A stretch of DNA of 64,000 bases from Myxococcota bacterium (GCA_041687695.1 JAWLBL010000011.1:165726-229725), one strand, 5' to 3'; shown: positions 101-41,087, numbered from the stretch's first letter. A program made the numbers and translations. Notes: generated from the sequence alone by a model not told the origin.

Positions 101-275
101 GAATTTGTACAGACGTGCAATTAGTCGCCCCGGGACGACGCGGACCCAGGTCGTCGTCCCGGAACGACTAGGGCAAGTAGAGGTCGGGCGAGAATTCAAC
201 GCGTGAGTAATTAGTCGTCCCGGGACGACGGGCGAGGGGTGGCGGGGCAGGTACCAGTCCGGGACTACGGTCAGG
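101..275. repeat. Left arm of palindromic repeats flanking the HNH gene (GTCGTCCCGGGACGAC family)
   Basis: Copies at 124-139 (1 mismatch), 153-168 (1 mismatch) and 214-229 (perfect), plus a degenerate copy near 252-268. The reverse complement is co-linear with 1694-1998. Confidence 0.9.
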
Positions 276-1440
276 CGGTCTGGGCGGCACGGTCGGGCCG
301 GCGACCTCCTGCACCTCGGGCCGCTCGCTTGCGTCGCACGAACTCCGTGCCCAGCTCCTGTCGGGCGATCAGCTGGTTGTGGGCCTGACATAGCAGGCTG
401 ATGTTGTCGGCCGAGTGGGCCCCGCCGGTCGCGAACGGCTCGTGGTGGTGGAACTCCAAGCGCCGCCGCTCGCGACACCGTCCCGCGGGCCCCTCGTAGG
501 TGCAGCGCAACCCGTCCCGTCCGACCACCTCACGCTTGACGGTGGTAGGAATGGCGCGGCTGCGGTCCTTCGGCGCGACCGGCTCGCCCGGCGCGTCCGG
601 CGCGTCCGGCTCGACGGGCTGGGTGTCGGGTTCGACCTCGTGCTTCCCCTGCGGCGGTTCGGCGGGAGCAGGCGCGGGCGCGGCGGTCGCCTTCTTCACC
701 CTCGGCTTGCGCCCTACCCCGAACCGCTGCTTCTTCTTGGCGGTCAGGAAGGCGTCCAGCGCCATCTCGAACAAGCGTTCGTAGTCTCCAGCGCCGATCT
801 GATGGCCGGCCAGAGCCATCGCCTCCTCCAGCTTGGCTGCCACGCGGGCGTCGACGGTCAGCTGGACCTTGAACCGCGCCTCCGAGAGCGGCTCGACCCG
901 ATGCTTCGGCTTCGGCGCCGCCAGCTGGAGGCTGTCGTCCCGGGACGACTCGTTCTCAGGTGCCTTCTGTGCAACCGGCGCACCCGAGGGCCGGGCCGGC
1001 AGCCGAACGACCCGGGCGGGGACGTCCGGCCGAGGCGACCACCTGGCCATCAACAGCTGAAGCTCCTGCCGCGTCTTGCCCGCGGCCTCGTGCAGCCGCT
1101 CCAGAGCGTTGTCGTCGGACAGGTGCTGGCGGAGCGCACGCACGCCGCTAAGGCTGAGCCGCCCGCCCGCGATCATCTCCAACGCCAGCGGCCACTTGCG
1201 CGCCACCTCGACGACCTTGGTGTAGGTCCAGGCCTGGTCCTCGGACAGCCCCCACCGCGCCATGCACCAGTCGGCCAGCGTCGACGCGCCGTCGACCAGA
1301 TGAAGGTCCCGCCGCACCACCTCGACCAGGCATGCGAGCAGGTTGGCCGTCGTCTTGCGGTGCACCGCAACCAACCGGTCGGCCGTTGTCATCAAGTCCG
1401 AATCAGACAGCTTCTTCAAGCACCCGCTGCGCTCGTTCAT
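271..1440 (-). CDS. DUF222-like N-terminal domain + C-terminal HNH endonuclease
   Basis: C-terminal RAIP..VKREV..RDG.RC....C...LEFHHHEPF..GG....NI.LLC..HN is an HNH/zinc-finger motif. ATG at 1440 is preceded by a GAGGAG RBS. Confidence 0.88.
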   Translation of the reverse strand: MNERSGCLKKLSDSDLMTTADRLVAVHRKTTANLLACLVEVVRRDLHLVDGASTLADWCMARWGLSEDQAWTYTKVVEVARKWPLALEMIAGGRLSLSGVRALRQHLSDDNALERLHEAAGKTRQELQLLMARWSPRPDVPARVVRLPARPSGAPVAQKAPENESSRDDSLQLAAPKPKHRVEPLSEARFKVQLTVDARVAAKLEEAMALAGHQIGAGDYERLFEMALDAFLTAKKKQRFGVGRKPRVKKATAAPAPAPAEPPQGKHEVEPDTQPVEPDAPDAPGEPVAPKDRSRAIPTTVKREVVGRDGLRCTYEGPAGRCRERRRLEFHHHEPFATGGAHSADNISLLCQAHNQLIARQELGTEFVRRKRAARGAGGRRPDRAAQTA

Positions 1441-1693
1441 CGGCCCCACTCCTCGTGTTCGGGAGCGAGAAGTGTAGCACGGGGTGCCGACCGCCCCCGG
1501 AACACCCCCTGGACGGCCGTTCAGGCCTCTCGGACACCCCGCGGCGACCCTCTACCCTGATCAGCGCGCCCTCGGACCTGCCAGAGGGCCCCTGGCGCCT
1601 ACCCAGGCCCGACCCTCGATCGGCAAAATTCTGTCCACAAAACCTGTCAACGACTATTTCGCCCCTCGTGCCCACCAGGTGTCGATTCTTCGT

Positions 1694-1998
1694 CCTGACC
1701 GTCGTCCCGGGGTGGAACTCTCGCCCGACCCACCCTGCGCCCGTCGTCCCGGGACGACTAATTGCATGCCCATTCAATTAGCGCCCCTGGGTGCGACCCG
1801 TCGTCCCGGGACGACTAATTGCATGCCCATTCAATTAGCGCCCCTGGGTGCGACCCGTCGTCCCGGGACGACAGCCTGGGTCCGCGTCGTCCCGGGCCGA
1901 CAGCTTGGGTCCGCGTCGTCCCGGGGCGACACCCCCTGGCGCGTCCCGTTACTCGTCCGTCGTCCCGGGACGACTAATTGTGCGTCTGTTCAATTGTC
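1694..1998. repeat. Right arm of palindromic repeats, including a 57-bp tandem duplication
   Basis: 16-bp palindrome at 1743, 1800, 1857, 1886 (1 mismatch), 1915 (1 mismatch) and 1959, plus a half copy at 1701. Periods are 57, 57, 29, 29 and 44 bp. Confidence 0.92.
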
Positions 1999-2111
1999 GT
2001 CCGTGCACTGCCCTCCGCGCTTGGCGCCCGCGCCCCGACCAGCGCCCCCGACTCCGCACCGCCGCCACCTGTCGCACCCCCGGCACCCCGCCGAGCGTGC
2101 GGGACGCGCAG

Positions 2112-2259
2112 CGGCCCGGACGGCCCCGTCCGGGCCGATGTTGGCCACCCAGCCGCAGCGGAGGCCGGGGTCAAGGGCTTTGTCGTCCGCGAGGAATTGG
2201 ACCGCCCGCAGGGCGGGCCAAGGGGGACAAAGCCCTTGAGGCCGGCCGGAGCGGAGGCT
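2112..2259. other. Structured non-coding element (hairpins)
   Basis: 11-bp perfect stem at 2112-2137. 14-bp perfect inverted repeat TCAAGGGCTTTGTC (2171-2184)/GACAAAGCCCTTGA (2226-2239), with an inner hairpin and outer stems. Confidence 0.65.
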
Positions 2260-2389
2260 ACCGAACCTGCCCCCCCCGCCCGCGCCTTCGACACCGACCC
2301 ACGCAGCGGCTACCAAACCAGCAGCCAGCCGCCCCCACCCCCGCGCCGTAGCTTGCTGGCCCCCCACCTGCGTGGTACCGCTTGCGCCC

Positions 2390-3793
2390 ATGACCTCGAC
2401 GCCCCTCATCGAGCAGCGCGTGCCGTATCCCCGGCGGGTGTTCTGCAACCGCAACCTGCGCCTGGACCGGACCGACTTCATCGGCTTCGACATGGACTAC
2501 ACGCTGGCGCTCTATCACGAGAAGATGGAGCACCTGCAGGCCGAGATGGTCCTGGAGCGCCTGGTCGACGAGTACGGGTATCCTCGGGCCGTGCTGGCCT
2601 GCAAGTACGACCCGGGCTTCGCGATCCGCGGGCTGACGGTCGATCTGGCGCACGGCAACGTCTTCAAGATGGACGCCCACCGCTTCGTCGGGCGGGTGTG
2701 GCACGGCGCGGGGCCGCTCGACCGCGACAAGCGGCGCGAGATCTACACCAACCGCAAGATCGCCCCGGCCGACCCCGGCTTCGTCATGGTCGACACGCTG
2801 TTCTCGCTGCCCGAGATCAGCCTGTACTGCCAGCTGGTCGACTACTTCGACCGCGAGGCGCAGGCCACGCTCGGCACGTCGCGCCCGACCTACGAGCGGC
2901 TGTGGAAGGATCTACGCGACGGGATGGACTCGCTGCACCGCGACGGCAGCTTGAAGGCCGTCATCATGCAGGACGTGCCGTCCTTCGTGGTCAAGGACCT
3001 GGATCTGGCCGAGACGCTCCACCGCTTCCGCTCGGCCGGCAAGCGCCTGTTCGTCATGACCAACAGCGAGCCGGCCTACACCGAGGCCGTCATGAGCTAC
3101 CTGCTCGACGGCATGCACCCCGGCTACGCCCGCTGGGTCGACTACTTCGACTTCATCGTCTGCTCGGCGCGCAAGCCGCTGTTCTTCACCAGCGAGGACC
3201 CCTTCCTCGAGGTCGACGAGGCGACGGGCGCCATCTCCAGCGAGCCGGCGACCTCGCTGCGCCGCGGGCAGCTGTACGCCGGCGGCAACCTCAAGGATCT
3301 CACGCGCCTGACCGGCATGCTGGGAGAAGAGGTCCTGTACGTCGGCGATCACATCTACGGCGACCTCATCCGCGCCAAGCGCGGCACCTCGTGGCGCACC
3401 GCGATGGTGGTCCAGGAGATGGACCGCGAGCTGGGCCACATGCAGGGGCACGGGCCCGAGCTCGACCGCCTGGAGCGGCTCGAGGAGGAGCGCTTCCAGC
3501 TGGCGCTCGAGCTGACCGCGCGGGCCCGCGACGGCCAGCGCGACCGCGAGCTGCAGGGCCGCGTCCGGGATCTCGACCGCGAGATCGCCGCGCTCGAGGC
3601 CGCCATCGACCAGGCCTTCAACCCCTACTGGGGCATGCTCTTTCGCGACCGCGCCGAGCTGAGCGCGTTCGGCGAGCAAGTCGAGGACTACGCGTGCGTA
3701 TACACCAGTCGCGTGTCGAACTTCCGGCTGTACTCGCCGGTCTGGTACTTCCGGTCACCGCGCGACCGCATGGCGCACGAGCTGCTGCGATGA
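2390..3793 (+). CDS. HAD-IG family 5'-nucleotidase (cN-II-like)
   Basis: Motif I GFDMDYTL, TNS motif, ARKP, and motif IV YVGDHIYGD. Confidence 0.93.
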   Translation: MTSTPLIEQRVPYPRRVFCNRNLRLDRTDFIGFDMDYTLALYHEKMEHLQAEMVLERLVDEYGYPRAVLACKYDPGFAIRGLTVDLAHGNVFKMDAHRFVGRVWHGAGPLDRDKRREIYTNRKIAPADPGFVMVDTLFSLPEISLYCQLVDYFDREAQATLGTSRPTYERLWKDLRDGMDSLHRDGSLKAVIMQDVPSFVVKDLDLAETLHRFRSAGKRLFVMTNSEPAYTEAVMSYLLDGMHPGYARWVDYFDFIVCSARKPLFFTSEDPFLEVDEATGAISSEPATSLRRGQLYAGGNLKDLTRLTGMLGEEVLYVGDHIYGDLIRAKRGTSWRTAMVVQEMDRELGHMQGHGPELDRLERLEEERFQLALELTARARDGQRDRELQGRVRDLDREIAALEAAIDQAFNPYWGMLFRDRAELSAFGEQVEDYACVYTSRVSNFRLYSPVWYFRSPRDRMAHELLR

Positions 3794-6700
3794 GGCGGCT
3801 CGGCGTGGCGCTGGCCGCCCTGCTGCTGGCGGCGGGCTGTGGGCGGACGACCTGGGAGAGCGCGGCGCGGGACGCGGCCGAGGCGGCGCGCGGCGGCGAC
3901 GCCCAGGCGCGGCTCGAGGCGGGCGAGCTGGCGCTGCTGGTCGAGGCGCAGCCCGAGGCGGCCAAGGAGCACCTGCTGGCCGCGCTGCGGGCGCCTAGGG
4001 CCAGCGGGGCGACCCGGGCGAGGGCGGCGCTGGCGCTGGTCCATCTGGGGCACCTGACGGGCGAGGCCGAGGTCGTGCTCGAGGCCCTCGAGCGCGGGCT
4101 GCCGGGCGCCGGGCCCCACGAGGCCGAGGCGCTGGCCGGGTCGGCCTCGATGGTCTGGGGCGCCGACGCCGAGACCGGCCCCGTGCCGGCGCGGCTGCAC
4201 GAGCTGCTGACCCAGCTGGCGGACCGGCCCGGGGCCGAGTGGGAGCCGGCGCGGGCCGAGGCGCGCGCGCAGCTGCTGACGGCCGCCGAGCTGCTGGGCG
4301 AGCCCGACCGGGTCGCGGCCGCTCGGGTCCGCGCGGGGCGCGCGATGTACTACCGCCTGTCGTCGCCGTGGCCGGGCGAGCCGGTGCTGGACCTGCGGAC
4401 CGAGCTGGGCCCCGAGACCCGCCCGCTGGCCGAGCGCGAGACCGTCCCGGCGCCGTACACCAGCGCGCGCACGGCCTCGCTGCCCAGCTGGCACCTGGCC
4501 TTCTCGGACGGCGAGCTGCACTTCTTCGACCTGCCCCGCGAAGGCGCCATCGGCTTCGCCGAGACCTGGATCGATCTGCCGCCGGGGGCCGACCGGCGCG
4601 TGGTCGTGCGGCTCGAGGCCAACCGCTCGGTCCGGCTGTACGCCAACGCCGCGCCGGTGCTCGAGCACGACCGCTTCGGCGAGACCGGGCCGTGGCAGCG
4701 CCGCGTCGCCCTGAAGCTGCCCGACGGGCCGACGCGCCTGCTGGTCAAGCTGGCGTCCGAGGACGGTAGCGGGTTCGCCCGGTTGCACGTCTCGCACCTG
4801 ATGGGCGCGGCCGAGGTCGTGGTCGACTCGGGGCCGGCCGCGGCGCTCGGCGGGGCGGCCGAGGTGATCCCTGCGCCGCCCGGGTTCGTCGAGGCCTTCC
4901 CGCGCCAGGTGGGGACGGCGCGTCCGGCCGACTTCTTCCGGGCGATCCACGTCTTCGAGGCGCTGGTGCACCGCCCCGTGCGCGACGCGCGGGCGGCGGG
5001 CGAGGTGCTGGCGGCGCTGTCGCGGGCGCTGCCCGAGTATCCGGGGCTGTTCGAGGCGCAGGCGCGGCTGGAGGCGGTCGACCCGCACCTGCCGCGGCAG
5101 CTGGCCGAGGGGCGGATGCGCCAGAGCCTGCGCAAGGTGATGGAGTGGTGGCCGGCGCTGCCGGGGGTGCTGCGCGCGATGGCGCGGCTCGAGGCGCGCG
5201 ACGAGCGGCACGACGCGGCGTTGGCGCTGTACCAGCAGGCGCTGGAGCTGCGGCCGCGCGACCCGCGCACGCTCATCGAGCTGCTGGACTGGCAGTCCGA
5301 GCGCGGCTGGGAGGCCGACGCGCTGGAGACGGCGGGGCGGCTGGCCGAGCTGGCCCCGGCGGCGCCGCGGGTCCTGCAGGAGGTCTTCGACGCCTACGAC
5401 CGCTTCGGCCACCGCGACCGCGCCATCGAGGCGCTGGCGCAGCTGACGGAGCTGTTCCCGCGGGCGGCCCTGTCGCGGGCGGCGCACCTGGCCGAGGCGT
5501 CGGGGCAGCTGGCCGAGGCGGCCGCGCTGAACCTGGAGCAGTGGAAGGCGCACAACGAGCGGCTGGCGTTGGCGCGGCGGGCGGTGGCGCTGCTGCGGGC
5601 GGCCGATGACACGAAGGGCGCCGCCAAGGTCGTCGAGATGGTGCTGCGGCGGCGCCCGCGCGACGCCTGGGCGCTGGGCGCGCGGGTGCTGCTGGCTCTG
5701 CAGGAGGGGCGGCACGCCGAGGCGGGGGCGCTCATCGACGCCGCGCTCGAGGCGCACCCCGACGGGACGCACCTGAGCAGCCTGGGCGCCTGGATCGCCG
5801 GGCGGCCCGAGCCGCTGGACGCGGTCGAGGACGGGCGGGCGCTGCTGGACGCCTGGAACGCGCAGGGGGTCGCCCAGGGCGCGGGCGGCGAGGGCCGGCC
5901 GGACACCTCGCGGCACCCGGTGGTGACGCTGCTGGACCGCACGGCGATGCAGGTGCGCGCCGACGGCCGCGTGCTGTCGCTGACCCACGTGGTGCGGGTC
6001 GTGCAGAGCAAGGGCGCGGCCGACCAGCTGGGCGAGCTGCGGCCGCCGCAGGGCGCGCGGGTGCTGGTGGTGCGGACCCTCAAGGCCGACGGGCGGGTGC
6101 TGTGGCCCGACCGCGTGCCGGGCAAGCCGGATCTGTCGTTCTCGGATCTGCAGCCCGGCGACGCGGTCGAGTGGGCCTGGGTCGAGCGCGGCTCGGTGCG
6201 CCCCGAGGAGGGCGGCTACCTGGGCGGGCTGGCCTTCGCCTCGTGGGACGCGCCGACCGTGCACAAGCGCATCGACGTGACCGTCGCCGACGGGCTGACC
6301 CTGGTGCCGCGCCCGCGTGGGCAGGCGCCCGAGCCGCGGGTGACGATGCTGCCGGGCGGGGGCCGCGGCTACCACTGGCAGCTGCAGCACCTGCCGGCCG
6401 TGCCGCGCGAGCCGAACGCGGCGCACGCCCGCACCTTCTTCCCCTTCATCGATCTGACGGTGACGCGGGCCGGGCAGGGGCAGGACGACGCCGCGGCCTG
6501 GCTGGCCATCGCGCGCTGGTACGCCGCCCGCCTGGAGCAGCTGGCGCGGCCCGGGGCCCGCGTGGCGCAGGCGCGCGCGCAGATCGCCGAGAACGCCCAG
6601 CCGGGCGGGCTGGGGGCCGCCTGGGCCGCCTTCGACCACGTCAAGCAGAAGATGGCCATCAGCGAGAGCTACAACAGCTTCGAGTCCACGGCCGAGGCGG

Positions 6701-7695
6701 CCCTGGCCCTGGGCAAGGGCAACCGCACGGTCGTCCTGCTGGCCCTGGCGCGCGCGCTGGACGTGCCGGCCAAGGTCTGGCTGTGCGCGCCAGAGACCGA
6801 CGGCGCGACCGGCGACGAGGCGCGCCCGCTGCCCAACGCCAACCGCTTCTGGTACCCGCTGGTCGGCTTCGATCTCGGCGACGAGACGATGTGGGTCGAC
6901 CCGTCGCGGCCGTACTACCCCTTCGGGGTGCTGGCGGCGCCCCTGCGCGGCGCGGCCTGCATGGACCCGGCGGCCTGGCCTCGGGGCGCCCAGGCGCTGT
7001 TCGTGCGGCTGCCCGAGGAGGGCGGGCGCGAGGTGCGGCCGCCAGGCTGGGACTTCGACATCGCGCTGAAGGTCGACGCCGACGGCACCGCGCGCGGGAC
7101 GCTGACGGGGCAGGGCTTCGGCCACGCGGCCAACGGGCTGCGGCACGTCTACCTGAACGCCGACGAGGCGCGCCAGCAGCTCCTGTGGCAGCAGTGGGCG
7201 GCGTCGGTGCTGCCGGGCGCGCGGGTCGAGGCGGTCGAGGTCGAGGACGAGCGCAACCCCGACGCGCCGATGCGCTGGACGCTGCAGCTCGAGATCCCGG
7301 GTTACCTGCGCAAGGACGGCGCGGGCCTCGCCACCTCGCAGCTGGTCGCGACGCTGCTGGGCAACCAGCTGGGCGCCGCGCCGGCCCTGGAGGAGCTCAT
7401 CGCCCTGCCGGGCCGGCAGACGCCGCTGCGCCTCGAGCCCCACGAGGAGCGGCTCAAGCTGACCATCGAGGGGCCGGCGGGGCTGAAGGCGGCCTCGCCC
7501 CTCGAGGCCTTGAAGCTCGAGACGCCGCTCCTCGCGCTGAACCAGACCGCCGAGGCGCAGGCCGCGCGCCTGGTGCTCGAGCGCTCCGTCACCGTGCGTC
7601 CGGGCCGCGTCGACCCGGCCGACTACGTCGCCTTCCGGGCCCAGGCCGTGCGCGCCGTCGGCGCCATGAGCCGCGGCCTGACCCTGACGCCCTGA
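3790..7695 (+). CDS. Large lipoprotein with TPR repeats and DUF3857/transglutaminase-like domains
   Basis: ATGA overlap with the upstream stop; lipobox LAAGC; helical TPR-like repeats; ...DLQPGDAVEW DUF3857 signature; WVDP motif. Confidence 0.75.
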   Translation: MRRLGVALAALLLAAGCGRTTWESAARDAAEAARGGDAQARLEAGELALLVEAQPEAAKEHLLAALRAPRASGATRARAALALVHLGHLTGEAEVVLEALERGLPGAGPHEAEALAGSASMVWGADAETGPVPARLHELLTQLADRPGAEWEPARAEARAQLLTAAELLGEPDRVAAARVRAGRAMYYRLSSPWPGEPVLDLRTELGPETRPLAERETVPAPYTSARTASLPSWHLAFSDGELHFFDLPREGAIGFAETWIDLPPGADRRVVVRLEANRSVRLYANAAPVLEHDRFGETGPWQRRVALKLPDGPTRLLVKLASEDGSGFARLHVSHLMGAAEVVVDSGPAAALGGAAEVIPAPPGFVEAFPRQVGTARPADFFRAIHVFEALVHRPVRDARAAGEVLAALSRALPEYPGLFEAQARLEAVDPHLPRQLAEGRMRQSLRKVMEWWPALPGVLRAMARLEARDERHDAALALYQQALELRPRDPRTLIELLDWQSERGWEADALETAGRLAELAPAAPRVLQEVFDAYDRFGHRDRAIEALAQLTELFPRAALSRAAHLAEASGQLAEAAALNLEQWKAHNERLALARRAVALLRAADDTKGAAKVVEMVLRRRPRDAWALGARVLLALQEGRHAEAGALIDAALEAHPDGTHLSSLGAWIAGRPEPLDAVEDGRALLDAWNAQGVAQGAGGEGRPDTSRHPVVTLLDRTAMQVRADGRVLSLTHVVRVVQSKGAADQLGELRPPQGARVLVVRTLKADGRVLWPDRVPGKPDLSFSDLQPGDAVEWAWVERGSVRPEEGGYLGGLAFASWDAPTVHKRIDVTVADGLTLVPRPRGQAPEPRVTMLPGGGRGYHWQLQHLPAVPREPNAAHARTFFPFIDLTVTRAGQGQDDAAAWLAIARWYAARLEQLARPGARVAQARAQIAENAQPGGLGAAWAAFDHVKQKMAISESYNSFESTAEAALALGKGNRTVVLLALARALDVPAKVWLCAPETDGATGDEARPLPNANRFWYPLVGFDLGDETMWVDPSRPYYPFGVLAAPLRGAACMDPAAWPRGAQALFVRLPEEGGREVRPPGWDFDIALKVDADGTARGTLTGQGFGHAANGLRHVYLNADEARQQLLWQQWAASVLPGARVEAVEVEDERNPDAPMRWTLQLEIPGYLRKDGAGLATSQLVATLLGNQLGAAPALEELIALPGRQTPLRLEPHEERLKLTIEGPAGLKAASPLEALKLETPLLALNQTAEAQAARLVLERSVTVRPGRVDPADYVAFRAQAVRAVGAMSRGLTLTP

Positions 7696-39119: not shown

Positions 39120-41087
39120 TCAGTAATAGAAGAGCGCGAGGAGCTGCGCGTCGGCGGCCTCGCCGCGCAGGCGCGCCTCGAGGCTGAGGCCCAGGTGCTC
39201 GGTGACCAGCCAGCGCAGCGTCGCGTCGACCGCGACCGGGTCGGGGCCGGCCTGCCAGGGCGACAGCAGCCAATCGGCCGTCACCAGCGCGACGAGCGGG
39301 TCGGACAGGCGCACACGCAGGCCGCCCCACGGCCCGGCGCTGAGGCGGACCGGGCCGTCCCAGGCGCCCGGGACCGTAGGCCCGCCCAGCACGCGCGTGT
39401 CGGCGCCGGCGAAGACCACGACGCGGTCGTCCAGCCAGCCCAGGGCGGCTCCGGCGGCCATGCGCAGCTGCCCCGCGAGGGCGCCGGGGCGGCCCAGGTC
39501 CTCGAGCGTGGTCACGCCGGCGTCCAGGCGCCAGCTGACCTTGTGCTCGATGCGGCGCAGGGGCGCCAGGGTGGTGACGCGGACCACGCTGGAGGCCAGG
39601 GCGAGGTCGTCCCAGGACGGCGCCGGGTCGTGGGTCAGGCGCAGGCGGGTCGGGAAGAACTCGAGGCTGGCCAGCTCGGGGTAGCCGCGGGGCGCGTCGG
39701 CGAGGTCGTGCATCGCCGGGCGCCAGTCCAGGGTCTGCACGACGCCGCCGGCGCGCGTGAGGCCCATGCCGAAGCCGAAGCGGGCCGAGCCGTGGGCGAG
39801 GTGCGGGCCCGACAGCGCGGTGGCCGACAGATCCAGCGCGGGGCTGGTGACGCCCAGGGCGGCGCGGCGGGCGAGCAGCGCGTGCTTCTTGTCGGCGCCG
39901 ACGCCCTCGCCGCGCAGCAGCTCGTCGGCGTGGCGCAGGTCGATGAGGTCGGCGGCGGCGTCCATGGCGGCGACCAGCTCGGCCTGGGGGAGGGCGGGCG
40001 AGGCGGCGCGCGGGTCGTCGGCCAGGGCGTGGGCCGCGTCGAGCTGGGCGTCGGTGAGCTGGGCGACGCGGCGGACCAGCTGCGTGCGCAGCGAGGCGCG
40101 GTAGCGGACGGCGCGCACCAGGCCGGGATGCTCCATCAGGCGCTTGACCGTGTCGGCCGGGATGACGTGGACGCCGAAGCCGTCGGTCAGCGGCAGGTGG
40201 GGCAGGGCGGCCTCGAGGGCGGCGAGGATGTGGTACGAGCAGTTCTCGTCCAGGTAGTAGTAGTCGAAGTGGGTCTGGCCCAGCTCCCAGAGGTGGGCGA
40301 GCAGCTGGCGGAGCTGGGCCGGGCTCAGGGCCAGCTCGTAGTCCCACAGGTCGCGCGACTCGTGGTCGTTGTACTCGCGGACCTTGTAGTAGTACGGGAC
40401 GCGCTTGAAGGTGCCGGGGAACTGGCCGGTCAGCCCCTTGAAGGCGTAGAGCGCGGCGTTGGTGGTGTCGACGTCGGCCGAGAAGTCGATGCCGAAGTCC
40501 AGCAGCTCGCGGCGCTCGCCGGCGAGGCGGGCGTCGTCGCGGTGCAGGCGCAGGAAGGTGTGGCCGAAGGCCGAGGCGGGCGCGCCCAGGTAGTAGCTGG
40601 AGAAGACCAGGCTGACGCCGCGCGGCGACAGGTCGGCGGCGAAGCGCTCGAGGCCCGGGCAGCGGACGGCGGGCAGGCGGGCCGGGTCGATGGCCAGCTC
40701 GGTGGACAGCCAGGCCAGCCGCGCCGGGAAGCGGCACAGGGCGTGGGGGCTGGGCGGCGGACGGACCGCGTCGGGGGGAGGGGGCGGGAGCGCGGGCGCC
40801 GGGGCGAAGAAGGCGCGCAGCGTGGCGGCCAGCTCGGCGCCGGGGTCGGTCTTTCCGGTGGGCGCCAGGAAGAAGGCGGCGCCGTCGGCTTCGCTCTCGT
40901 AGCCGCCGAAGGTCGTCGGCCGCCAGTGGCCCAGGGTCAGCCACTGCCGTGAGTGGGCGAGGCCCCGCTGGTGGGCGGCGGCGACGAGCGCCTGGACCTG
41001 TGGCGGGTCCGCGGGGAGCGCCACCGGGCGCGGCGCCGAAGCGCACGCGCCCAGGGTGGCGATCAAGACGACGAGGGCTTGGCGCAA
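39120..41087 (-). CDS. DUF4105 (Lnb N-terminal-like) domain protein with C-terminal barrel
   Basis: CRFPAR, P.SAFGHTFL, ESRDLWDYEL, FDYYYLDENCSY. Confidence 0.85.
   Translation of the reverse strand: MRQALVVLIATLGACASAPRPVALPADPPQVQALVAAAHQRGLAHSRQWLTLGHWRPTTFGGYESEADGAAFFLAPTGKTDPGAELAATLRAFFAPAPALPPPPPDAVRPPPSPHALCRFPARLAWLSTELAIDPARLPAVRCPGLERFAADLSPRGVSLVFSSYYLGAPASAFGHTFLRLHRDDARLAGERRELLDFGIDFSADVDTTNAALYAFKGLTGQFPGTFKRVPYYYKVREYNDHESRDLWDYELALSPAQLRQLLAHLWELGQTHFDYYYLDENCSYHILAALEAALPHLPLTDGFGVHVIPADTVKRLMEHPGLVRAVRYRASLRTQLVRRVAQLTDAQLDAAHALADDPRAASPALPQAELVAAMDAAADLIDLRHADELLRGEGVGADKKHALLARRAALGVTSPALDLSATALSGPHLAHGSARFGFGMGLTRAGGVVQTLDWRPAMHDLADAPRGYPELASLEFFPTRLRLTHDPAPSWDDLALASSVVRVTTLAPLRRIEHKVSWRLDAGVTTLEDLGRPGALAGQLRMAAGAALGWLDDRVVVFAGADTRVLGGPTVPGAWDGPVRLSAGPWGGLRVRLSDPLVALVTADWLLSPWQAGPDPVAVDATLRWLVTEHLGLSLEARLRGEAADAQLLALFYY

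Follow-up and report, generated by a model that had tools for sequence, protein, structure and literature searches.

The window analysed here, 64,000 nucleotides of a Myxococcota genome (G000:C11:165726-229725; host assembly 7.97-Mb, 73% GC), opens with a gene for an HNH nuclease enclosed by inverted arrays of a 16-bp palindrome, and raises the question of what kind of genetic unit joins such an enzyme to such repeats. In the original prediction, the arrangement was put forward as a candidate REP-like element driven by the nuclease. A site scan found the palindromes on both flanks of the gene, as had been described. The feature is real, and it is larger and more general than first noted; the build of the element is shown, and so is its occurrence at some orthologous sites but not at others. 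Exact copies are fewer than the "at least 3 left, 6 right" that had been counted, as one is present on the left (position 214) and four on the right (1743, 1800, 1857 and 1959), and another, not noted before, lies inside the gene (934-949). The sites at 124-139, 153-168, 1886 and 1915 each have one mismatch. With up to two mismatches allowed, the window contains 11 matches as compared with 0.21 expected, and 10 of these 11 lie within 124-1974; the match at 39606 looks like a chance occurrence.

The gene, on the minus strand at 271-1440, encodes a 389-aa protein and is one of 22 paralogs. The 3′ palindrome array (101-275) is an inverted copy of the 5′ array (1694-1998), and the reverse complement of the former is identical to the latter at 146 of 175 positions, consistent with the co-linear inverted arms initially proposed; the right arm carries ~130 nt of extra cassettes relative to the left. 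The 3′ array includes sites at 124, 153 and 214 and a degenerate site at ~253-268, and it does start at the stop codon of the gene (271-273). Positions 1-100 (no strand assigned) are the inner part of the left (3′) arm with degenerate CCCGGG sites. In the 5′ array, a degenerate site at ~1701 is followed by those at 1743, 1800, 1857, 1886, 1915 and 1959, and an identical 57-nt duplication is included. Between this array and the gene, all on the minus strand, are a predicted ribosome-binding site (1445-1453), a predicted extended -10-like motif (1471-1480) conserved in 21/22 paralogs, and a conserved TTGAC motif (1643-1651) located 59 nt inside the innermost site and present in 21/22 paralogs and in 38/46 distant homologs having an upstream palindrome. 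A scan for sigma-70 promoters and terminators found none, and an Rfam search of positions 1-2400 returned two noise matches only.

The arms extend beyond the segment originally described, to 2263 on the right and to C11:165322 on the left. On the right, the array is followed by a variable spacer (1999-2099), for which the closest match in the genome is the left arm of the same element (79%, rank 1 of 37), and by a conserved terminal element (2100-2263, minus strand) found in 43 copies that are 80-100% identical. The latter consists of a small hairpin (2113-2136) and a long imperfect hairpin (~2150-2262) that folds strongly (z -6.0), and its outer end is sharp at 2263, reading GGTAGCC inward. 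On the left, a 10-N gap (C11:165716-165725) lies just before the window and is followed by two sites, a spacer and an inverted terminal hairpin (C11:165322-165487), so that the element ends at C11:165322, 404 nt before the window. With their outer parts included, the arms are identical at 328 of 381 positions. The whole unit, 2.67-kb long (2,667 bp from hairpin to hairpin), thus has the order hairpin, array, gene, inverted array and inverted hairpin, and is located between divergent Lon and 5′-nucleotidase genes. As judged by gene and domain annotation, the unit includes no partner methylase or immunity gene.

Across the host genome, the 22 near-full-length paralogs are dispersed in intergenic positions on 13 contigs and form subfamilies A (n=7, 71-100% identity) and B (n=15, 51-57% identity), which are the two sides of a fully supported branch. 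The palindromes are enriched near these paralogs genome-wide, as expected from the proposal that they are tied to the HNH gene rather than to a transposase. Among 33 exact copies of the 16-mer, 24 are within 1.5 kb of a paralog, eight within 1 kb of a terminal hairpin and one at a contig end, and 32 of the 33 are at elements or gene-less derivatives. Likewise, 323 of 352 copies of the core CGYCCCGGGRCG are found at elements, which cover ~1.65% of the genome, as compared with 0-10 of 28-127 copies near paralogs for seven control palindromes of the same design. Sites occur upstream of all 22 paralogs and in the coding linker of 21, where their position differs between A and B. The terminal hairpin is located upstream of 19/19 paralogs with enough flanking sequence and, inverted, downstream of only 7/21. 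Its 43 copies divide into 26 at paralogs, eight at contig ends, eight at gene-less units and one alone; gene-less units composed of hairpin, array and hairpin were found on C3, C7 and C27. The 22 paralogs are under purifying selection, which includes the HNH domain in both subfamilies, with dN/dS values of 0.08-0.23 in three domains versus 0.50-0.88 in the linkers.

The sites also bear traces of copying. In subfamily B, the A|B form accounts for 83/128 upstream sites and the B|A form for 31/51 downstream sites, giving polar hybrids that face the gene, and in one gene-less unit the B|B and A|A forms alternate. The two arms of an element are 79-91% identical and match each other best (rank 1-2 of 37 in 9/10 cases). 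Outside the hairpin ends, G-rich short tandem repeats are present in 24/40 cases (56/500 for windows taken at random), and in 6/41 the start of the hairpin has been copied again in part. In the hairpin itself, 12 of 48 pairs show compensatory changes across 36 copies; such changes also arise from arm-to-arm DNA copying. The host genome encodes Ku.

To establish whether the unit is an insertion, filled and empty sites were compared in relatives, as the original prediction had proposed, and empty sites do exist. In contigs of a relative (89-91% identical) from sequencing runs X1 and X2, which belong to two studies, the distance from the 5′ end of Lon to the 5′-nucleotidase gene is 187 nt, and the corresponding interval in the host genome is 3,101 nt; short joints from other organisms were left out of this comparison. 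Metagenome relatives of the 5′-nucleotidase locus (31 loci, lacking the HNH gene and the hairpin) were considered as further empty sites but rejected because their synteny with Lon is lost. For other members of the family, the sister genomes G217 and G321 were compared, with L089 (one syntenic flank) and L215/L222 (filled in both genomes) left out, and the four G217 elements with synteny on both sides are all missing from G321. Three of the four G321 empty sites have no palindrome, and one of these three holds unrelated genes. At the fourth (L060), a single palindrome of the family type is present, its arms being different, and sites can therefore be scars or targets. In the cleanest of these comparisons, the two palindromes are set in from the element's ends by 17 and ~30 nt, and 25 nt of host sequence was replaced with nothing duplicated. 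No target-site duplication was detected at the hairpin ends of seven paired units in the host genome or in the filled and empty pairs of G217 and G321. The junctions are blurred by 10-15% host divergence.

The number of copies points to insertion rather than loss. As the paralogs are no more than 80% identical to one another, a recent jump was not caught. Nevertheless, dispersed copies with terminal repeats, gene-less derivatives and empty sites make up the pattern of a mobile element. With 22 copies, absence from the relative's site and a gene in which HNH is the only enzymatic domain recognised, the unit is likely mobile without a transposase of known type.

The encoded protein was examined for domains that might account for the end palindromes. 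Pfam and NCBIfam searches identified HNH only, and recombinase domains of the DDE, HUH, serine and tyrosine classes were not detected in the gene; a PDB sequence search gave weak matches, nearly all of them to HNH domains. The HNH residues C313, C322, H332, N346, C351, H354 and N355 are conserved. The structure model (pLDDT 83 for the whole protein and 95 for the N-terminal domain alone) predicts a three-domain fold comprising a helix-turn-helix domain, a ribbon-helix-helix domain and a McrA-type HNH domain. The last (aa 292-363, positions 352-567, minus strand) matches EcoKMcrA best (Z 8.0), together with the GVE2 HNH endonuclease and the IscB HNH domain (Z 6.6-8.0 overall, and 6.6-7.5 for IscB). 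The predicted ribbon-helix-helix domain (aa 187-241, positions 718-882, minus strand), assigned from fold matches to NikR, Rv0298, MazE, ParD2, TraM and AmrZ (Z 4.3-4.8), would probably serve in dimerisation. The exact palindrome at 934-949 encodes S-S-R-D-D in a linker.

The predicted helix-turn-helix domain (aa 8-138, positions 1027-1419, minus strand) resembles those of ParB, Noc and KorB. Residues 26-138 match ParB-parS 6s6h (Z 6.5), KorB (6.2-6.4) and Spo0J (6.2), values that are middling for a helical domain. The top five Foldseek rows for the N-terminal domain alone are Noc-NBS, ParB and Spo0J, though these are weak (E 1.9-2.5, probability ~0.5), and a whole-protein search gave HNH matches only (E≥0.025). 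The ParB-type assignment is therefore a prediction on which two programs agree with middling scores, and the match would predict the DNA that is observed. In PMC7383237, ParB and Noc are described as two-fold dimers that bind 16-bp palindromes via a recognition helix, and the Noc site NBS has a CCC-GGG centre, the same as the palindrome of the element. The putative recognition helix of the window protein is formed by aa 66-82 (positions 1195-1245).

The family is large (11,206 clusters at E≤1e-30) and patchily distributed, with homologs in at least 27 of 301 genomes of the phylum (E≤1e-40); tblastn gave no match in plasmids and phages. In homologs from other phyla, the element ends are marked by an 18-20-bp palindrome peculiar to them, and homolog clades were found to have palindromes of their own, a point that the original prediction had proposed to check. 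In a positional test of 133 full-length loci out of 159 (26 partial, oversized or G016 loci being excluded), 18-bp palindromes peak at -300 to -200 upstream (39/126 loci) and again at the 3′ end (14/132 and 35/129), other bins having mostly 0-6. This test replaced a metric based on the most frequent 10-bp palindrome, which was discarded since 25/300 random windows pass it. After a further 11 loci with short flanks were dropped, 64 of 122 loci have end palindromes, versus 5 of 105 control windows; at the strict cut-off, 18 of the 122 have palindromes at both ends and 58 at neither.

The half-site consensus of the family palindrome is AACT-NNN-YCC. In G217, where paralogs differ in their palindrome arms, 14 of 16 sites are perfect palindromes when the arm bases are left free (control 0). 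Most relatives have a single palindrome per end rather than arrays, and the basic unit is ~1.3 kb. The elements of G011 have independently arranged arrays and inverted arms of 217-425 nt in 8/9 copies, and those of G287 have inverted repeats of ~50 nt without a palindrome. The long hairpin was not found in 106 other genomes of the class, save for one 41-nt piece; the feature of the family is therefore the palindrome and not the hairpin. A weak RuvA C-terminal-like domain is present at the end of 5/38 homologs, a hint of helicase recruitment.

If the predicted helix reads the palindrome, the two should change together. The helix segment 66-74 differs between subfamilies and clades having different sites. 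In the Acidobacteriota-type set (40 loci), T is found at site position -4 in 6/6 loci having Asn72 and in 0/34 others, and the pairing occurs in at least two parts of the tree. By these comparisons, one residue of the recognition helix appears to track one base of the palindrome. A mutual-information scan of co-variation is confounded by phylogeny and was kept as a lead only. The co-variation is drawn from ~22 effective sequences, and non-helix columns score equally high. The left and right sites of an element sometimes differ, and SEATAFHRI, a single helix sequence, occurs in G217 with several arms; specificity is therefore loose.

The reading favoured here, with a probability of about 0.55, is that of a self-mobilising element in which a dimeric protein binds the end palindromes, its HNH domain nicks the DNA, and the synthesis and repair machinery of the host copies the unit. 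The dimer would bind the element's own 16-20-bp palindromes through helix 66-82, and such binding by the predicted ParB-like domain is suggested by the fold, the symmetry of the sites and the co-variation. That the HNH domain would nick at or near the end palindromes is suggested by its intact conserved site, and that host replication and break repair would copy the element to a new site is suggested by the traces left in the sequence. The chemistry of movement is the most speculative part. An HNH nick leaves a 3′-OH. HNH enzymes are not known to make a covalent intermediate, and insertion would therefore need host enzymes. The symmetric site may fold back, or rejoin at CCC|GGG in either orientation, which could give rise to an inverted arm for which the 5′ arm of the same element served as template and to tandem and alternating cassettes, as well as to co-varying palindrome halves and ragged junctions. 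In the host lineage, a unit with one site per end may then have grown arrays and the terminal hairpin.

Other explanations place the palindromes or the nuclease in a different role. The palindromes might be operators for autoregulation or looping, with the unit moved in trans by an enzyme such as a Y1/RAYT transposase acting on the GTAG hairpin. The upstream site lies 28-85 nt from the TTGAC motif, an operator-like spacing, the strongly folding terminal hairpin does begin with GTAG, and RAYTs act in trans according to PMC8266576. Yet the 11 Y1_Tnp matches in the genome lie away from the elements, with 0/43 hairpins and 0/352 cores within 3 kb of a Y1 gene and no exact 16-mer near one, and at C22:44011 the Y1 gene has another repeat family, itself abundant, on its flanks. 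The full hairpin was found in 1/107 genomes, yet hairpin-free relatives show empty sites. Together with the purifying selection on the HNH domain in both subfamilies, this makes movement by another enzyme unlikely. Still less probable is a role for the arms, or for the ~200-nt leader, as a source of structured RNA serving the HNH enzyme as guide or regulator, as in HEARO/OMEGA systems, or of CRISPR-like repeat RNA. The original prediction had offered transcription into repeat RNAs as its alternative, and this is unsupported, as there is no Rfam match above noise, the spacers are duplicated rather than unique and the long hairpin occurs only in this genome, most relatives having one 20-bp palindrome per end without it. 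The conserved leader motifs and the compensatory changes in the hairpin would fit an RNA, though the latter are also expected from arm-to-arm DNA copying, and the weak resemblance to IscB (NCBIfam E 2e-6, besides the structural match) is restricted to the HNH domain, at 27 bits versus a cut-off of 175.

It is about equally improbable that the protein is a McrA-like defence or addiction nuclease spread by horizontal transfer and recombination, the palindromes being self-marks or by-products. EcoKMcrA as the top structural match, the patchy distribution and purifying selection on every copy would all be in keeping with defence, and are to be set against 22 dispersed copies with terminal repeats, gene-less derivatives and empty sites, the pattern of a mobile element, and against the lack of a methylase or immunity partner in the unit. 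Misassembly of a repeat beside a scaffold gap is a very improbable origin of the inverted arms. The 10-N gap does lie inside the left arm, and the strain is matched by no sequencing run (best share 0.06), but the arms at 79-91% identity are not exact copies, four other two-armed elements are gap-free, the inverted arms recur in G011, and the order of Lon and 5′-nucleotidase genes is confirmed in the relative.

If the preferred reading holds for the family as a whole, the DUF222-like HNH genes, of which there are over 11,000 clusters at 50% identity, would be an unrecognised class of autonomous mobile elements free of a transposase. Their ends would be held by ParB/Noc-type and ribbon-helix-helix domains, nicked by HNH and copied by fold-back or break-repair synthesis, with helix and palindrome pairs co-evolving lineage by lineage. 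This extension is put forward tentatively, at slightly less than even odds. Were mobility to need the HNH domain, it would represent a transposition chemistry other than those of the DDE, HUH, serine and tyrosine classes, and the ParB/Noc fold would be linked to selfish DNA. The family would also be a natural library of palindrome-specific nucleases, with thousands of helix-site pairs for the study of how DNA specificity evolves.

Several known systems share parts of this plan. A McrA-type HNH domain in a selfish element is known from IscB/HEARO (OMEGA) systems and from HNH homing endonucleases, and to this extent the element resembles both. Unlike in IscB/HEARO, no RuvC was detected, nor any guide RNA as judged by Rfam. 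A free-standing homing endonuclease has one cognate locus, and its insertion splits the recognition site, whereas the element occupies 22 dispersed loci and keeps its putative recognition site at both ends. Classical insertion sequences have a DDE or HUH (IS200/IS605) transposase, those of the DDE type with target duplication. Like them, the element is a unit of 1.3-2.7 kb that has a single gene and inverted ends, occurs in many copies and shows empty sites, but it lacks both a transposase of the DDE or HUH type and target duplication, and its junctions are ragged. No RNase H-fold DDE domain was matched by sequence, and the model is taken up by the helical, ribbon-helix-helix and HNH domains. 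By these descriptions, the element is set apart from IscB/OMEGA systems, DDE insertion sequences and single-locus homing endonucleases.

The likeness to ParB-parS, Noc-NBS and KorB lies in the predicted helix-turn-helix fold, in the 16-bp palindromes present in multiple copies, with a centre as in NBS, and in a specificity that, as far as the alignments indicate, tracks residues of the helix. Unlike ParB and Noc, the protein begins with the helical domain and has no N-terminal CTPase domain (no ParBc match) and no parA neighbour, it ends in an HNH nuclease, and its sites travel with the gene.

With REPtrons and TIRtrons the element shares one nuclease gene bordered by inverted palindromic repeats in local arrays; its gene-less inverted-pair derivatives resemble REPINs. 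The tetranucleotide GTAG, which stands 5′ of the hairpin in REPtrons, is found here on the lineage-specific terminal hairpin but not on the family-wide palindromes. It departs from them in having an HNH enzyme where RAYTs have a HUH/Y1 enzyme, in a gene that is multicopy and probably mobile, with empty sites, in repeats that stay at the elements, and in loop-less palindromes, one of them inside the gene, that would suit binding by a dimer to double-stranded DNA. The tnpA-REP gene is usually single-copy, with no evidence of mobility, in the available parts of PMC3733652 and PMC8266576, and HNH is not mentioned in that portion of the REPtron account PMC3733652. Hence the element is REPtron-like in layout but is not a REPtron, as enzyme, gene copy number and repeat dispersal all differ, and the term REP-like applied to it at the outset does not hold.

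The closest relatives are the DUF222-HNH proteins, including those of the REP13E12 type, with which the element shares homology along the protein (an N-terminal helical domain and a C-terminal HNH domain) and the multicopy state. The description of the gene as DUF222-like stands as regards homology, since the family profile (A1) aligns with the DUF222-HNH protein of G016, a true member (PF02720 E 5e-20), at an hhalign probability of 99.1 (E 1e-18). It does not stand as a Pfam assignment, as neither the window protein nor 38 aligned members match PF02720 at E≤0.05, and one homolog matches it weakly (23.5 bits versus a cut-off of 24.4). REP13E12 is named just as a repetitive element in the part of PMC10589994 that was available. 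Literature searches, which gave little coverage of subscription journals, turned up neither end palindromes nor a domain assignment, a function, a mechanism or a way of spreading for DUF222-HNH genes, and no published account of palindrome-bounded HNH elements or of such a domain plan. The DUF222-HNH gene of G016 carries its own palindrome, both upstream and inside the gene, as does the gene in the window. Multicopy DUF222-HNH genes are abundant in bacterial genomes, and for homologs of these genes the ends are now defined, empty sites and non-autonomous derivatives are on record, and a predicted domain plan would account for the ends. As each gene adjoins its own candidate recognition site, binding, cutting and mobility are directly testable.

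Beyond the outer end of the terminal hairpin of the HNH element (window position 2263) and beyond other hairpin ends, the sequence carries G-rich, strand-biased short tandem repeats, the outer 40 nt containing 53% G and 20% C. The start of the hairpin is also partially re-copied outside these ends, and together the repeats and partial copies resemble the products of iterative end synthesis. At two loci of genome G217 (L089 and L082), the end palindromes are lengthened to 28-33 nt, with nested symmetry at L089, as fold-back synthesis would give. The paralog at G000:C2:132586-133581, in the genome under study, lacks the first ~70 codons and the promoter, and the upstream array is joined directly to the remainder; this is a deletion with an endpoint adjoining a palindrome site.

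Upstream of the HNH gene, window positions 1471-1651 include a conserved extended -10-like motif and a conserved TTGAC motif, the latter with conservation extending to other phyla. The two are separated by ~165 nt, which is too great a distance for a single promoter. Long, unrelated branched hairpins adjoin the gene in other lineages (L032, L041 and L100 in G011; L035 and L044 in G016), and their stems are of the TGTGG/CCACA type, resembling DnaA-box-like motifs. A weakly matching RuvA_C-like C-terminal domain, found in 5 of the 38 homologs (P0026 and four more), could serve to recruit RuvB.

The 5'-nucleotidase gene (PF05761; window 2390-3793) is followed by a TPR/DUF3857/transglutaminase-like gene (window 3790-7695), and this order is preserved in relatives. 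In G321, a ~1.28-kb insertion (L215:2602-3883) immediately follows the 3' palindrome of an HNH element. This sequence, present in about 30 copies in the sister genome G217, is probably an unrelated IS.

The genome under study includes a third hairpin repeat family of 40-57 motif copies (C42:42200-42700, C42:46900-47705, C27:86600-86700 and the C44 flank), which frequently adjoins HNH-element remnants and is seldom close to Y1 transposase genes. The Y1_Tnp gene at G000:C22:44011-44241 is flanked by seven copies of a repeat distinct from those of the HNH element, and 16-mers related to this repeat occur >110 times across the genome. This gene and its flanking repeat appear to be the true RAYT/REP system of this genome.
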